Source: a virus. From it: 34,130 nucleotides of DNA. Below, in pieces: positions 25,213 through 30,146 of this stretch. Positions within the stretch are counted from its first letter, which is position 1. Each line of letters starts with the position of its first letter. Where the stretch lies: IMG/VR virus record IMGVR_UViG_3300022746_000013, positions 1 through 34,130 of that record; one strand, 5' to 3'. The notes under the pieces were generated by a model. The model was not told where the DNA came from and ran no database searches. It was given only the letters and a program-made list of their open reading frames with translations. The translations under genes were made by a program, and so were the position numbers.

Positions 25213-27408
25213 TTAATTTACTCCTACGATTTTGCCATTTTGGTCACGAATGACTTGTTTGGGGCGGGTTAAGTGCGCCATCATTTGACCAATGGCTTCG
25301 GATTGTTGGGCGTGTGAGTTTTGGATTGCACCCAAGACTTGACCCATGTTTTCTGCCAATGCTTGATTAGACTGAGCCAATACGCCTTGCAACAGAGCCG
25401 AGGCTTGCTGATTGCCAGAATTGTCGTACTCAATCAAAGCGGTTGACTTGTCCATGCCCTTCAAACGAAGGTCGGTCTCGGCTTGCAATTGAGCCACAGC
25501 CATCTTAGTTTCAGCCTCAAGATTAGCTTTCCATTGAGCCAATTGAGCATCTTGTTGGGCTTTTTGTTGCTCAAACTGGATGCGTTGGGCTTCCATTTGC
25601 GCTTCCATTTGGGCTTTTTGAGCTTCGGCTTGGGCGCGAATTTGGTCAGGACTTGGTTGAGGCGGTTGAGCCATGCGTTGCTGTTGTCTTTGCTCAAGCT
25701 GTTGCATGGTTGTTTCAAATACGCCCTCAAGCTCACGACCAGCTTTAAAGCCACGCACCCCAAACAACAACATTTGCATATACAAAGGAGCCATTTCGGG
25801 CGTAACCTGTGATGCTTGTGTAGCTTGGGTCAAGAAGTTGCCAGCGGCTTGCAGGAATTGCACACGGTTTTGCTTTTCGCTTTGCTCGTCAAGCTCAACC
25901 AAAGTGTCGGTTTCAATGTCAATATTGAAATTACGCAACTTCTCGTTTTTGAGCAATGCGATAGCCTGGGCAACCAACTCAGGGTTTTGACCATCAGGCG
26001 TGTTGGCAATGCCAGATACTTCCAAAATGATCTCAGGCTGATACTTAGAGCAAATGATTTCCGCTTTCATGCGGAGCAAATCACGGGCAAATCGAGCAAC
26101 ATCGTCTTTCATGTCATTTAGACGGATAGAAGCGAATTGCGACTTAATTTGTTGGGCAGTAGCAGTTTCAGAAGCCACAGAAGCGCCACGGAGAATGTCA
26201 GAAATGCCTGTGGTTTCGTAAATGATCTGCTTGCAAGCATCACGGGCGCGATACAGCGAAGTCAGGGAATTCACTACGTCAGTCAATGGCAAGAACTGCA
26301 CAGCGCTATTTAAACCGCCCTTTTCAACAAAAGCAGGCCAGTTAGTGACGGGAACCATCACGGCATCGTTGCCTTCTTTCATCAATCGAGCCAAGGCAGG
26401 TTCGTCAGCAGCGTAAATGCCCATTACCTTCAAGGCTTTGGTCAAATGTTGGATGCGACCTGTAATATCGTCAATCTCGTCAGCTTGGTCTTGGTACATC
26501 TTGAAGTCCGCTACGGGAATCAAGCTGTCTGTTGTGACTGTTGCAAAGATTGGCTTGGGACAAGGGAAAAAGCCTTCCAACTCTAGCGGGTCTTCTTTTT
26601 CATCCAAGATTTCATCAAAGTGGTCAGCAACCCAATAGACGGTCTTGCTTGACTTGCACCAGATTTCCCAAACTGGGGCCTTTTTCAAGGCTTGAGTGGT
26701 TGCCAAGTCTTCGCCATCTTTGTCAGGCGAATGGGTCAATGGCACTTCTTTGAATTTGTCGCCAAAACGCTCAACGCCTTCTTCTTGGCTCATGTAGACC
26801 CTACGGGCTACCCAAGTCACTTCTTCCCAAGTACGGGCAGGCAAATGCGCAAAATCTTCCCAAAAGACGTAATCAACAGGGGTGCGCTCATCGGTAACTT
26901 GTTCTAACGGTTCAGCATCTTCACCAGCCAAACCATTAGTTTCTAGGTCGCCTTCGCCTTGACCTGCTGCGTAACCTTCGTCTTCTACGTCATCCGTAAT
27001 TTGAGGTTCTTCAACAGTCTCGATCTTTGGCTCATAACGCAACCAAGACACGCCACGGCCAATAAGCAATCGGTCATCAACCGAATGTGACATTGCTGAA
27101 TGGTAATCACCATATTGACGCAATTCGTAGTCAATGACGCGCTCAACAATGATTGCAGCCACGCGGCCAATGTCGTTTTGGTCTTTGAATCGGCGTGATG
27201 CCTCAATCTTGGGTGGTCGAGAGTAAACCGCAGGCTTTAGCGTCTTAATGTTTGACCAAAGGATGTTAAATCGCGCATCCGTGTAGTCTGTATCTTTGCG
27301 AACATCACGGAAACGCTTAACGATCTTGCGACCTTGCTCAGTAAATTTGCGATAGTCCTCTGTGTATCGGTGCAACTCATCGCGCCAATAGATCGCGTTA
27401 TAGGCCAT
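25213..27408 (-). CDS. Portal protein, 731 aa, with long Q/A-rich helical C-terminal extension
   Basis: ORF track 25213-27432; start moved to the ATG at 27408 with AGGAG SD. Size and position directly after terL. Confidence 0.8.
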   Translation of the reverse strand: MAYNAIYWRDELHRYTEDYRKFTEQGRKIVKRFRDVRKDTDYTDARFNILWSNIKTLKPAVYSRPPKIEASRRFKDQNDIGRVAAIIVERVIDYELRQYGDYHSAMSHSVDDRLLIGRGVSWLRYEPKIETVEEPQITDDVEDEGYAAGQGEGDLETNGLAGEDAEPLEQVTDERTPVDYVFWEDFAHLPARTWEEVTWVARRVYMSQEEGVERFGDKFKEVPLTHSPDKDGEDLATTQALKKAPVWEIWCKSSKTVYWVADHFDEILDEKEDPLELEGFFPCPKPIFATVTTDSLIPVADFKMYQDQADEIDDITGRIQHLTKALKVMGIYAADEPALARLMKEGNDAVMVPVTNWPAFVEKGGLNSAVQFLPLTDVVNSLTSLYRARDACKQIIYETTGISDILRGASVASETATAQQIKSQFASIRLNDMKDDVARFARDLLRMKAEIICSKYQPEIILEVSGIANTPDGQNPELVAQAIALLKNEKLRNFNIDIETDTLVELDEQSEKQNRVQFLQAAGNFLTQATQASQVTPEMAPLYMQMLLFGVRGFKAGRELEGVFETTMQQLEQRQQQRMAQPPQPSPDQIRAQAEAQKAQMEAQMEAQRIQFEQQKAQQDAQLAQWKANLEAETKMAVAQLQAETDLRLKGMDKSTALIEYDNSGNQQASALLQGVLAQSNQALAENMGQVLGAIQNSHAQQSEAIGQMMAHLTRPKQVIRDQNGKIVGVN

Positions 27409-27446
27409 AAAAACTCCTGAAAGTTGGCGCATTTTAACGCCATATA

Positions 27447-28691
27447 TCAGATTCTAGTATGCCTTTTAGCTGGCGTTTCGTCAAATATCTCCTGAAGCGT
27501 CTGCTCATGCCACCATTTTGGCTTGACGGGTTCAGGCGCTTTGTATTCCTCACGCCAGGCTATTGCCATGTAACGGACTGAATCGGCTCCGTGGCTTGTC
27601 CAATCGTGTCTTGGTCTGTCTCGATAACGCTTCTTGTCGTCATCCCATTCCCGTTGGTATTGGCGCAAAGATTCCAACAAGCTATATTCCTTGCATTTTT
27701 TGGCATCCATCCAAAGTTTTGGAAATAACGCTCTGACAGCTTGAATTCCATCTTGCAGCGATAAATCAGGCACGATTCTGACATTGGCAATCCCTAGTTG
27801 TTTTTGAGCCATCTCTTGAATTGACTTGCCGCCTGAAGCCAAGGTCTTAGCCCTAGCATCGTGCGGTAGCCAGTGTTTACCGTATCGGTAACCTTTGGAC
27901 TTGACTACGGCAATATAGTCATCCATTGCCAAGCCTGACCCTGAGAAGTGGTCAATGATGTGGACTTCACCACCGATAACCTGAAAGAACACAATTGAAG
28001 TGTCATCCGTGTAACCCAAGTCCCAAGCGGTATGAACCAAGGCGTTTCGGTCATACGGAACGGCTGAAATCCTGCCTTCTTGCTCGGCAATCCTCATTTC
28101 CTTGCCGTAGTACGCCCCAAGAATAGCCGCCTCAAACGAACACTCAAACTCTTGAAGGTATTGGTCTTCACTCATCATGGACTTGGCATCGTCTAATTCT
28201 GAAGCAGGCAAAAGGTTAGTTTCTGAGGCTTTCAGGGTCGTAACGTGCCAGTTTGGAGATTGTTGGGCGCTATCGTAAACATCCCAAAAGTTGTTTTTTC
28301 CCTTTGGTGTACCAATAAACACAGCCCAACCCTGACGGTCAGCTAGTAAGGGGCGGATAACCTCACCCCACACACGGGGCTTCATGTCGGCGTATTCATC
28401 ACAGACTATTCCGTCAAGATACATACCTCGCAACGCATCGGCATTGTCAGCGCCAAAAAGACGGATGCGAGCGCCAGTCATTAACTCAACCCACAATTCA
28501 GAAGCATTTGCTTTTGTCCTTACGTTTTCAGTAAAACGCAACAAATACATCCATGCAACAGATTTTGCTTGGCTTAAAAACGGACAAATGTAAGCATATT
28601 GACCGTCAGACTTTCCTTCGGTCAGTGCTCGCTTGATTAAATCATTTACACAAGAAACAGTTTTACCAGCACGATCTTCGGCGGTGGGCAA
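27447..28691 (-). CDS. terL: Terminase large subunit, main part (414 codons from a TTG); N-terminal segment missing
   Basis: Walker A AEDRAGKT at codons 4-11, Walker B LDGIVCDEYA, GTPKGKNNF, nuclease motifs HTAWDLGYTDD and HGADSVRYM; in-frame TAG at 28692-28694. Confidence 0.85.
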   Translation of the reverse strand: MPTAEDRAGKTVSCVNDLIKRALTEGKSDGQYAYICPFLSQAKSVAWMYLLRFTENVRTKANASELWVELMTGARIRLFGADNADALRGMYLDGIVCDEYADMKPRVWGEVIRPLLADRQGWAVFIGTPKGKNNFWDVYDSAQQSPNWHVTTLKASETNLLPASELDDAKSMMSEDQYLQEFECSFEAAILGAYYGKEMRIAEQEGRISAVPYDRNALVHTAWDLGYTDDTSIVFFQVIGGEVHIIDHFSGSGLAMDDYIAVVKSKGYRYGKHWLPHDARAKTLASGGKSIQEMAQKQLGIANVRIVPDLSLQDGIQAVRALFPKLWMDAKKCKEYSLLESLRQYQREWDDDKKRYRDRPRHDWTSHGADSVRYMAIAWREEYKAPEPVKPKWWHEQTLQEIFDETPAKRHTRI

Positions 28692-28708
28692 CTAAACACG
28701 CCCACCGC
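28681..28708 (-). promoter_or_regulatory. Perfect 9-bp GC-rich hairpin GCGGTGGGC-N10-GCCCACCGC enclosing the terL TTG and the preceding TAG
   Basis: Inverted repeat read directly; the TTG (28691-28689) lies at the loop/stem boundary. Confidence 0.6.
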
Positions 28709-28731
28709 TCACTCCTATCGTGAAATGGTTT

Positions 28732-28759
28732 AAAAACATTCCGTGGTTTATACGGAATG
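28732..28759 (-). terminator. Terminator-like hairpin CATTCCGT-N7-ACGGAATG plus TTTTT, 15 nt after the HNH stop and upstream of terL
   Basis: 8-bp perfect stem and T5 run read on the minus strand. Confidence 0.4.
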
Positions 28760-28774
28760 GTGATTCGCTTAACT

Positions 28775-29260
28775 TCAGTCATATTTCCAGTTTACGTTTC
28801 TCCATATAGCGAATACTGTGCTTTTGCTTACGCCAAAGTCTTTAGCGTATTGTCGTCCTGTTTTTTCTTTCTTTCTAATGATGTTTACTTGCTCTAACGT
28901 CAATTTGACTGAATTTGATAGTTCACCACGATTGTTTGGAACAAAGTTGCGTTTTCGCCTTGCACAATCTTGCGAATTCTGTGCAAGTGTGCCTTCATAA
29001 AGATGATTTGGATTGACGCATGATGGATTGTCGCAATCATGCAAAATGTTCATTCCATTAGCAATTTTGCCTTTGTGCAATTCATAGGCAACTCTATGCG
29101 CTTTGGCTGTACCTTGCTCTCTAGTACCAAGACCAATAACTCCATATCCTTGTTCTTTGACTGCGCCAGTCCATATCCAACAACCAGTCAATGCTTCAGG
29201 GGATACTTTTTCGTGAAATCTATCCCACAATGGCTTAATAATTTCGCCAGGTTTTCTCAT
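28775..29260 (-). CDS. HNH homing endonuclease with C-terminal HTH, 161 aa
   Basis: GCWIWTGAVKEQGYG...HRVAYELHKG...ILHDCDNPSCVNPNHLYEGTLAQN (HNH_3 type); own GGAG-N6-ATG at 29260; the ORF is open upstream to 29341. Confidence 0.85.
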   Translation of the reverse strand: MRKPGEIIKPLWDRFHEKVSPEALTGCWIWTGAVKEQGYGVIGLGTREQGTAKAHRVAYELHKGKIANGMNILHDCDNPSCVNPNHLYEGTLAQNSQDCARRKRNFVPNNRGELSNSVKLTLEQVNIIRKKEKTGRQYAKDFGVSKSTVFAIWRNVNWKYD

Positions 29261-29341
29261 GTGAATCTCCATGCATGAATCAAAAGAAGTTGTGGCAGGC
29301 AGTGATTCAATCTGCTTTTCCCCCGCTAAAGGTAGCCACAT
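29261..29341 (-). other. 27 codons (MWLPLAGEKQIESLPATTSFDSCMEIH): candidate terL 5' exon/remnant, in frame with the HNH ORF
   Basis: ATG lies 8 nt after the terS stop, where terL would normally begin; it contains a KQ that would sit ~20 residues before the Walker A glycine if joined. Confidence 0.4.
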
Positions 29342-29348
29342 CTATATT

Positions 29349-29675
29349 TTACTTACTTTCCCATTCAAAAACCACTTTTGTAACAACTGGTGCATCAGGG
29401 TCGCCAATGTGTTCAGTTCTAGCTAACTTGGGCGCGGCGTACTCTGCCAATTTAGCCATTAAGTCCAATGCTTTATAAGGGTCTGGTTTGCGGTCGTGAA
29501 CTATGTCACCCTCTGCAACCTCTTTAAGCCACTTTTCCACGTTTTCTGCGTTGTTCTCTAGCAGGCTATTAACCGTGTCTCTAAAGTGCTTTGTAGCCTT
29601 GTTTATGGCTCCCTTGGGCCTGCCTCTGCCTTTATTGGTCAAATTGGCAGAATTTCCATTGTCTATTTTATTCAT
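29349..29675 (-). CDS. terS: Terminase small subunit, 108 aa
   Basis: Basic N-terminus NKGRGRPKGAINK and LMAKLAEYAAPKLARTEH motif typical of small terminases; directly upstream of terL. Confidence 0.7.
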   Translation of the reverse strand: MNKIDNGNSANLTNKGRGRPKGAINKATKHFRDTVNSLLENNAENVEKWLKEVAEGDIVHDRKPDPYKALDLMAKLAEYAAPKLARTEHIGDPDAPVVTKVVFEWESK

Positions 29676-29715
29676 GCTAATCCTTTAGGTTTCTAACTGA
29701 TTACGCTCATTTTAG

Positions 29716-30024
29716 TCACAAATCAGGCCACTTGTTCATAGCTTTCAGTTTGCTTACAGTCTTAGCGTAAGCCATTTGCCACAACATTCGGCGTTGCTCT
29801 TTACTAAGCCTAGCACCTTGGTCTAGTTCCGTGTGGCATTTTTGACACAAAGCGGCTGTGAATTCGTCACTTGCCTTGATTCCCCTGCCTTTACCGTGTT
29901 CAGCCCAATTTGAATGTGCGGCTTGGGTTTGACCCTCGATGTAGCAGTTTTGGCAGGGTAGGCTTGCCACGTTCTTCAGGTGTTCTTTGCTTCTGAAGTA
30001 GTTAAATTTAGGAATTGCTGTCAT
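29716..30024 (-). CDS. YbcO/DUF1364-like putative nuclease, 102 aa
   Basis: LPCQNC......AAH......GKGRGIKASD....ALCQKCH.ELD pattern. Confidence 0.55.
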   Translation of the reverse strand: MTAIPKFNYFRSKEHLKNVASLPCQNCYIEGQTQAAHSNWAEHGKGRGIKASDEFTAALCQKCHTELDQGARLSKEQRRMLWQMAYAKTVSKLKAMNKWPDL

Positions 30025-30146
30025 TTTTTGTCGTAATCACCGCGCAAAAACTTTTCACGCTCAATTTCACTATAAACCCAGATTGCTCCAAACGCTATGC
30101 CAGCCAAGGCGCAGCATAAAGCATCAAGCCAAATGTTTCCTGTCAT
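30021..30146 (-). CDS. Membrane micropeptide, 41 aa (MTGNIWLDALCCALAGIAFGAIWVYSEIEREKFLRGDYDKK)
   Basis: Below the ORF-track cutoff. Starts 2 nt after the upstream stop and is ATGA-coupled downstream. Confidence 0.45.
   Translation of the reverse strand: MTGNIWLDALCCALAGIAFGAIWVYSEIEREKFLRGDYDKK

Follow-up and report, generated by a model that had tools for sequence, protein, structure and literature searches.

How can a phage make a full-length large terminase subunit (TerL) from a gene whose reading frame is broken inside the codons of its Walker A motif? This question is raised by a viral sequence of 34,130 nucleotides (nt), the IMG/VR record IMGVR_UViG_3300022746_000013 (the whole stretch, positions 1 to 34,130, is referred to below as the window), in which the terL gene lies in two frames. 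A preliminary description of this DNA attributed the disruption to a cassette encoding an HNH homing endonuclease, which would have entered terL just 5' of the Walker A codons as an intron or as an intronless insertion. Its view that terL is disrupted at these codons, and that a homing-type HNH is involved, holds up; the interruption itself proved to be not the HNH cassette but a 7-nt gap. Sequence comparison with related phages leads us to regard terL as a single gene that is probably expressed by programmed translational bypassing of this gap, the gap being part of a patch linked to the homing endonuclease. The features of the site, which like the HNH gene and the open reading frame (ORF) at the terS position all lie on the minus strand, are the following:

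28678..28782, minus strand: terL ORF1, 35 codons (MTEVKRITIPYKPRNVFKPFHDRSERWACLVAHRR) from the ATG at 28782 to a CGA; the ATG overlaps the HNH stop codon as ATGA.
28712..28715, minus strand: Shine-Dalgarno (SD)-like GGAG, 3-4 nt 5' of the hairpin (3-5 nt across the family).
28681..28708, minus strand: hairpin of 9 base pairs (bp), with 5' arm GCGGTGGGC (28708-28700), loop GTGTTTAGTT (28699-28690) and 3' arm GCCCACCGC (28689-28681).
28678..28680, minus strand: CGA (Arg35), the proposed take-off codon and the last frame-0 codon that agrees with homologues.
28671..28677, minus strand: coding gap AGATCGT, 7 nt, whose deletion in silico gives AHRRAGKT, as in homologues.
Within 28671..28677, minus strand: AGA, the first gap triplet and the A-site codon at the proposed take-off.
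28673-28671, minus strand: CGT, the final three gap bases and the proposed landing triplet.
27447..28670, minus strand: terL ORF2, 407 codons from the resume codon GCT (Ala36, 28670-28668) to TGA, in the +1 frame relative to ORF1.
28663..28665, minus strand: frame-0 stop TAA, which without gap skipping ends a 39-residue peptide (ORF1 followed by RSCW; ORF 28663-28782).

The 7-nt excess is located between the Walker A codons for HRR and those for AGKT, and throws the remaining 407 codons into the +1 frame. Joining ORF1 and ORF2 yields a TerL of 442 residues, and the homologues retrieved with this joined protein, which are 440-444 residues long, are 76-83% identical to it over 97-100% of the length. 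Their N-termini, of the form ...RWA(C/V)xVAHRR(A/C)GKTV..., align with the ORF1 peptide, which agrees with 119 of the 120 homologues listed; exactly one residue separates HRR from GK[ST] (HRRxGK[ST]) in 119 of the 120 as well. The exception, P0011, begins with MPTAEDRAGKT and is the shortened call of another interrupted gene. This database entry of 413 residues derives from L001/L002, and illustrates how public gene calls cut interrupted TerL proteins short.

A similar shortened reading was made in the window itself. The long TerL ORF (27447-28691) does open at a TTG right behind an in-frame TAG (28692-28694), and AEDRAGKT does fall within its first codons, as had been noted; the AEDR taken for the start of TerL is, in fact, an out-of-frame reading of the HRR codons and the 7-nt insert. 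The distance of 83 nt between the HNH stop and the TTG was also given correctly, but this stretch is not non-coding: it encodes TerL residues 1-35 (MTEVKRITIPYKPRNVFKPFHDRSERWACLVAHRR), and is the true 5' end of the gene, so the TTG is not the TerL start. With Pfam Terminase_6N the joined protein scores 23.0 bits (cut-off 22), compared with 20.9 bits for the TTG-started ORF. PHROG phrog_2 is matched with E = 1.8e-34, and a portal gene (25213-27432; phrog_12082, E = 4.5e-185) lies directly downstream. An AlphaFold2 model of the joined protein has a mean predicted local distance difference test (pLDDT) score of 83, in which residues 27-32 form strand β1, residues 33-37 the P-loop and residues 38-53 helix α1, with pLDDT above 90 there. 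Foldseek searches with this model recover the solved structures of D6E, T4 gp17, Sf6 gp2 and the P74-26 ATPase domain with E-values of 1e-18 to 1e-11. The resemblance to known TerL proteins, in sequence and in fold, extends over the ASCE ATPase and the RNase H-like nuclease domains. As modelled, the gap junction falls in the middle of the P-loop, inside the confidently predicted β1-P-loop-α1 unit, and the strand β1 that precedes the P-loop is present in the joined product only, the TTG-started ORF lacking it.

The window contains no second terL. ORF2 differs from its relatives mainly at third codon positions. Between the window and L001, for instance, the terL bodies share 82% amino-acid identity, with 35, 24 and 121 differences at the first, second and third codon positions, respectively; this excess at third positions shows that purifying selection acts on ORF2 in the frame it is read in. 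The identical 7-nt gap recurs in three other independent assemblies, namely L001 (ENA), L002 (Logan) and L007 (IMG/VR). Sequencing error as the source of the frame break is ruled out because of this recurrence and because the site has 12 gap variants, described below. Transcriptional slippage was also rejected, as a reading of the sequence shows no homopolymer run at the gap site.

The elements upstream of terL, on which the earlier interpretation was built, are these:

28775..29260, minus strand: free-standing gene for an HNH_3 endonuclease of 161 residues with a C-terminal helix-turn-helix-like region (Pfam PF13392, E = 2.7e-11; PHROG HNH endonuclease families).
29273..29342, minus strand: full-length match to the Rfam int-alpA motif (RF02996), model positions 1-71, located in the leader that precedes the HNH gene; it scores 41.8 bits, the gathering score being 35.8.
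29349..29675, minus strand: ORF of 108 residues, putative terS, assigned by position alone; PHROG family of unknown function.

The preliminary description had correctly recognised an HNH_3-type gene with its own GGAG-N6-ATG at 29260, as well as an ATG at 29341 that opens 27 further codons in frame with the HNH; the stop of the putative terS (29351-29349) lies 7 nt before this ATG. The conclusion drawn there, that the cassette is an intron or an intronless insertion within terL with 29341-29261 as its upstream exon, is rejected, and we give it practically no chance. That these 27 codons are open and in frame with the HNH speaks for it, as does the fact that introns occur in this phage group, a group I intron being present elsewhere in the contig L175. 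Group I and group II covariance models, however, have no match at 27300-30100 even at E ≤ 10, and a Rfam search of the whole window at gathering scores found no introns. The supposed exon has no TerL counterpart in homologue N-termini and overlaps the match to the int-alpA RNA motif, and the real TerL N-terminus lies downstream of the HNH. The comparison with an HNH-free relative points the same way: in L007, whose TerL is 94% identical, the stop of the terS-position ORF is followed directly by the terL start, and this phage lacks the whole cassette yet its terL begins in the same way and contains the same 7-nt gap. The HNH gene, which is absent from the nearest relatives L003-L008, hence sits between the putative terS and the intact terL 5' end rather than inside terL.

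The gap itself turned out to have a wide distribution. Related sites were sought in three scans: 1) a search of viral contigs with the hairpin sequence; 2) a search of viral contigs with a pattern that was blind to the hairpin and GGAG and allowed 0-10 extra bases; 3) a search of metagenome contigs with a similar hairpin-blind pattern that allowed 4-7 extra bases. The three scans combined gave about 57 distinct interrupted loci in contigs from independent metagenomes. These have 12 gap sequences of 4-7 nt, all placed exactly at the HRR/AGKT codon boundary:

7-nt gaps: AGATCGT, AGATAGT, AGACCGT, AAACCGT.
5-nt gaps: AGGGT, AAGGT, TAGGT, TAAGT.
4-nt gaps: AGGT, TAGT, TAGA.
6-nt gap: TAACGG (single, L347).

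The gap alleles produce net frame shifts of +1 and +2, in addition to the one 6-nt gap that opens with an in-frame TAA. The locus with this last gap (L347 889-932, metagenome contig Ga0208980_10085071) reads CGA TAA CGG GCG, has TerL frames intact on both sides, and is the best discriminator between bypassing and frameshifting. Stop-free inserts of 3, 6 or 9 nt at the Walker A site were not found in the scans. As far as the contigs permit a judgement, both parts are intact: an ORF1 of 32-38 codons that has a start codon, and an ORF2 body of about 390-435 codons. The take-off codon is CGN in every interrupted locus, and the first gap triplet is a stop (TAG or TAA) in five gap types, AGG or AGA in five and AAA or AAG in two. 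The final three gap bases are always NGN (CGT, GGT, AGT, AGA or CGG), and can form one or two base pairs with the anticodon for the CGN take-off codon.

Searches of the region against 50,697 phage records with megablast and blastn gave no match, so that no cultured carrier of the cassette was found, and the best TerL proteins from isolates, of the Pelagibacter HTVC010P type, Rhodoferax P26218 and Methylophilales Venkman, are only 41-45% identical. The interrupted pattern had 0 matches in bacterial and archaeal genomes; hence these provide no prophage copies and no clue to the host. A Microcystis phage record, H25, with an apparently split terL was found to be normal.

We favour bypassing as the means of expression because skipping of the gap alone gives a sensible product, AHRRAGKT, for all 12 variants. 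In the window, translation would begin at ATG 28782 and proceed through 35 codons as far as CGA (28680-28678), where slow decoding of the A-site triplet would give the peptidyl-tRNA-Arg time to leave its codon. After a forward shift of the mRNA by 7 nt, the same tRNA would re-pair with CGU (28673-28671), and decoding would restart at GCU (28670), giving the P-loop AHRRAGKT and the 442-residue TerL. In most bacteria CGA and CGU are both read by tRNA-Arg(ICG), which makes this a candidate for the tRNA in question; the window has no tRNA genes, so the phage region analysed encodes neither a suppressor nor an Arg tRNA. A poorly decoded A-site triplet probably helps, this being AGA in the window and AGG or a stop in relatives. 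The hairpin, in re-forming in the mRNA behind the ribosome, may pull the mRNA forward, its stem of 8-9 bp being longer than any gap (4-7 nt), and pairing of the GGAG with the anti-SD sequence may assist. Ribosomes that do not skip would end at the TAA 28665-28663, and we infer that, with a frame-breaking gap, failure would leave only a short product and not a defective motor subunit of full length.

The same site could also be read as one of programmed +1 frameshifting at CGA-AGA, with one base skipped and the rest of the insert translated, which would give AHRR-DR-AGKT and the junction ...VAHRRDRAGKTV.... The net shift in the window is indeed +1, and the site resembles those of prfB and Ty elements in having an SD-like element upstream and a rare-Arg or stop codon behind the shift point. 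The four 7-nt gaps would be read as DR, DS, DR and NR in the +1 frame, which has a mildly conservative look. Nevertheless, CGA would be unable to re-pair in the +1 frame (GAA), and the GGAG is 31 nt from the shift codon, as against 3 nt in prfB. The 5-nt gaps, with the same site and signals, would require +2 or -1 shifts, and the 6-nt TAA-CGG gap is not repairable by any frameshift. Frameshifted P-loops would gain one or two variable residues, whereas the 119 homologues already mentioned and all uninterrupted loci have exactly HRRxGK[ST]. On these grounds we think +1 frameshifting unlikely, though it keeps some plausibility.

The hairpin and the GGAG are as regular a part of the interrupted loci as the gap. 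An invariant 8-bp core (CGGUGGGC/GCCCACCG) is perfect in every interrupted locus, and across the family the core helix stops one or two bases short of the take-off codon; in the window the helix lies immediately 5' of CGA. The hairpin region of the window has a fold energy of -28.6 kcal/mol (z = -3.76), and the helix employs CGG, which with 4.8% is the least used of the Arg codons in the window. In the hairpin-blind metagenome scan, at least 8 of the 9 stem positions are paired in 44/44 loci. GGAG, which was never included in any search pattern, is present in 43/44 of these loci (the remaining one has GAGGG), and in 33/33 interrupted loci of the viral-contig scan. By comparison, among 167 distinct uninterrupted contexts a perfect 9-bp stem is seen in 14 and GGAG in two. 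In 17 matched pairs with TerL bodies 84-99.5% identical, hairpin and GGAG occur together in 17/17 interrupted alleles and in 0/17 of the closest gap-less ones. A covariation count over 27 sequences showed 7/9 pairs to be invariant and the ninth to be G-C in 13, A-U in two and unpaired in 12. The case for the hairpin accordingly draws on this enrichment relative to gap-less alleles, and on the invariance of the stem while the loop, the spacer and the neighbouring codons diverge.

Two perfect hairpins had been reported in the supposed non-coding stretch. The second is the real 9-bp hairpin described above, but it lies inside terL coding sequence and reaches into the TTG-started ORF. The first, CATTCCG-N9-CGGAATG (28735-28757, minus strand), lies inside terL codons 9-16; its stem is kept with another loop in L001, weakened in L007 and absent in L083, and is probably incidental. 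In the minimum-energy fold of the window, CACGAU (28717-28722, the His21-Asp22 codons) pairs with AUCGUG (28670-28675), which consists of the last 5 nt of the gap and the first base of the resume codon, and thereby encloses the GGAG and hairpin. This extended pairing is shared by L001 and holds at 5/6 positions in L356; it is absent from the other gap types, and was not used further.

The position of these elements also bears on whether the two ORFs might be expressed separately, as a 39-residue peptide and a 414-residue protein started at the TTG, or whether the gene is simply inactive. The TTG right behind the in-frame TAG would suit separate expression, and some relatives with 5-nt gaps (e.g. 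L083 3480-3530, and L163) have GGAG 6 nt before a body-frame GTG in the 5' arm of the hairpin. There is also a precedent in that MobA- and MobE-split genes can work as two chains (bioRxiv 10.1101/2022.08.31.505936). Such a split, however, would part strand β1 from the P-loop, and the TTG, buried in the hairpin, lacks an SD. In 12 of the 22 AGGT-gap loci there is no body-frame start codon at all upstream of the resume codon. Both parts are intact and conserved in the approximately 57 distinct loci, and the gene is the sole terL in the window. With so many alleles devoid of a body-frame start codon, we rejected internal initiation and a split protein; judged from the sequences it would be formally possible in the 5-nt-gap subset only, and separate chains or an inactive gene are highly improbable as a general account.

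How, then, did so many terL genes come to be interrupted at one codon boundary? The interrupted alleles are scattered over TerL lineages that are mutually 55-70% identical, yet for many there is a gap-less neighbour that is 92-99.5% identical. Four pairs (L343/L312, L191/L336, L163/L242 and L172/L258) have near-identical flanks around a patch of about 65 nt that has been replaced; this patch spans the GGAG, the hairpin and the gap up to the GGT AAA codons, and the surrounding TerL backgrounds are 98-99.5% identical. The window shows gradients of a related kind. Against the gap-less L003-L006 its identity is 50-63% over the terL 5' segment, 67-80% over the next 300 nt or so, and about 90% thereafter, with 95-100% identity to L006 beyond about 300 nt past the gap. 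Against L001, identity is highest at the terL 5' segment (87-95%) and falls to about 60% just past the gap. This is what one would expect to see if recombination about a site of cleavage had spread a cassette.

The link to the endonuclease is statistical as well as positional. An HNH homologue is found up to 1.3 kilobases (kb) upstream in 26 of 52 interrupted loci and in two of 148 uninterrupted ones (odds ratio 73; Fisher p = 4.5e-16). The HNH of L001 (5433-5914) is recovered by tblastn as two segments in different frames (residues 1-150 and 129-161), which suggests that its C-terminal DNA-binding part is frameshifted and that the endonuclease is decaying while the gap is kept. The sequences are thus consistent with an endonuclease that later decays, as in L001, or is lost, as in L007. 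The patch of gap, hairpin and GGAG thus moves from one terL allele to another by recombination, in company with the neighbouring HNH. If MobA and gene 60 are a guide, the gap probably disrupts the HNH target in the Walker A DNA, the most conserved stretch of terL, whereby carriers would be immune and gap-less competitors would be cut and converted. What the sequences show is the anatomy of the site, its conservation, its mobility and its link to the HNH, whereas the skipping, the tRNA involved, the roles of the hairpin and GGAG, and the immunity are proposals. Taken as a whole, the proposal of a mobile bypass cassette of about 65 nt, made up of the SD-like GGAG, a hairpin on the exit side, a take-off codon for Arg and a gap of 4-7 nt, that has spread with an HNH through the terL Walker A site of a large aquatic group of podovirus-like phages, seems to us somewhat better than evenly supported.

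Several observations weigh against bypassing or against the roles assigned to its elements: 1) The landing triplet of most relatives is GGU or AGU, only a 2/3 match to the take-off codon, the full range in relatives being GGU, AGU, AGA or CGG. 2) AGA accounts for 14% of the Arg codons in the phage's own genes, where it is thus not rare. 3) AGA, AAA and AAG are not obviously slow codons, and AAA or AAG opens two of the gap types. 4) While CGA occupies the P site, the ribosome should still enclose the hairpin's 3' arm, which makes the action of the hairpin uncertain. 5) The stem offers no informative covariation, as the 8-bp core never varies. 6) Shared descent of the mobile patch could partly explain the enrichment of the hairpin. 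7) The inverted repeat may have its function in the DNA rather than in the mRNA. 8) Half of the interrupted loci are without the HNH gene.

The last of these points, to which the closely related L007 contributes, would fit a different emphasis, namely that the recoding is real but mainly limits TerL synthesis or makes the 39-residue ORF1 peptide, with the HNH link being incidental or secondary. The terminase inserts of phage Hau3 have been proposed to be regulatory (PMC10732093), and the gap of the window may possibly act as such a limiter. The very strong HNH association argues against regulation as the main role, and the gap behaves as a mobile patch that has repeatedly been gained or lost in near-identical terL backgrounds. 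The gene 60 family, too, keeps its gap after loss of the endonuclease (bioRxiv 10.1101/2022.08.31.505936). A primarily regulatory insert with an incidental HNH therefore strikes us as quite unlikely.

Among known systems, bypassing of the terL gap would most resemble that of T4 gene 60 and its endonuclease MobA, where the insert blocks self-cleavage and is retained after endonuclease loss (bioRxiv 10.1101/2022.08.31.505936), and where pairing of the exiting mRNA has been proposed as a forward driver of bypassing (bioRxiv 10.1101/2024.12.09.627546). In both cases a frame-breaking non-coding insert lies in an essential, highly conserved gene next to an HNH homing endonuclease, is kept in endonuclease-less lineages, and reflects recent, repeated insertion at one site. 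In either system the A site at take-off can hold a stop or the rare AGG, a single tRNA may be able to read both take-off and landing triplets, and the take-off codon is preceded by a stem-loop (bioRxiv 10.1101/2022.08.31.505936, 10.1101/2024.12.09.627546). There are also differences. The gap of gene 60 is 50 nt long, whereas the 4-7 nt found here leave no room for an A-site take-off stem-loop or an in-gap mini-SD, and the SD-like element is instead located 5' of the hairpin. Gene 60 is a topoisomerase gene with Gly GGA as its take-off codon, in contrast to the Walker A region of terL with Arg CGN. The HNH lies here upstream of an intact gene 5' end, not between the halves of a split gene, and a dedicated nascent-peptide signal is not evident.

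A second parallel is provided by the Streptomyces phage Hau3 and a prophage, which have short frame-disrupting inserts in the large terminase, with flanks that are contiguous in relatives. For the Hau3 terminase, a junction peptide (GWG/KD...) was detected by mass spectrometry in E. coli, in support of bypassing of a 10-nt insert (PMC10732093, PMC5009743). The proposed stimulators, a 5' stem-loop and a flanking internal Shine-Dalgarno sequence, are alike, as is the argument that extra residues would not be tolerated at a highly conserved junction. In Hau3, however, the inserts are 7-10 nt long and UUA-initiated, the terminase family and hosts are different, the trigger is the rare Streptomyces UUA codon, and a role in lysis/lysogeny sensing has been proposed. 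A link to a homing endonuclease has not been reported for Hau3, and three genes are known there, as opposed to about 57 loci with 12 gap variants and an evidently mobile cassette here. The terL site also recalls the release factor gene prfB (RF2) in its SD-like element upstream, in the stop or presumably slow codon at the A site and in a ribosome that would move forward on the mRNA. It differs from prfB in that there is no slippery P-site codon, that the SD-like element is 31 nt distant as long as the hairpin stays unfolded, and that shifts of +4 to +7 nt would be needed, with +2 and in-frame cases included.

To our knowledge, natural examples of programmed bypassing are very few, comprising T4 gene 60 and its relatives, the yeast mitochondrial byps and the Hau3 terminase candidates. 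Full-text literature searches, which did find the T4 and Hau3 precedents, returned no description of the terL gap family. The sporadic presence of an HNH gene in HTVC010P-related phages has been reported (PMC6811365); what would be new, to judge from the sequences, is short-gap bypassing tied to a homing endonuclease and located in terL. If correct, this would be the second natural pairing of a homing endonuclease with translational bypassing, making a homing endonuclease with a protective untranslated insert a recurring strategy rather than a peculiarity of T4, and the hops would be the shortest natural programmed ones. The 12 gap variants would form a natural series for studying how a hairpin in exiting mRNA drives the ribosome forward. 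More generally, the family would add dozens of independent natural variants with a minimal gap, a simple architecture and matched gap-less alleles, in which the triggering of short hops, the choice of landing site and the push by exiting mRNA become directly testable. There is also a practical side, as gene callers shorten these TerL proteins and so distort terL phylogenies and estimates of phage genome completeness; this truncation artefact is likely to recur across the phage group.

Some further observations concern the neighbourhood of the site. A sequence search of the PDB with the HNH protein returned nothing useful, and the terS-position ORF (29349-29675) has no Pfam match. The int-alpA motif is also found upstream of the HNH gene of L001 (5354-5424, plus strand; 41.1 bits), and was not detected at the gathering score upstream of the more distant HNH genes of L083, L084, L164, L168, L175, L218 and L222. 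The group I intron match in L175 (2868-3090, minus strand; RF00028, 56.2 bits, gathering score 50) lies about 7 kb from the terL gap of that contig and has no connection with the terL site. A second nuclease-like gene (Pfam DUF968, E = 7.6e-8; phrog_131 'HNH endonuclease', E = 1.1e-24) is located next to the putative terS on its upstream side, at 29716-30024 on the minus strand; its product might be an HNH that serves in packaging and not in homing.

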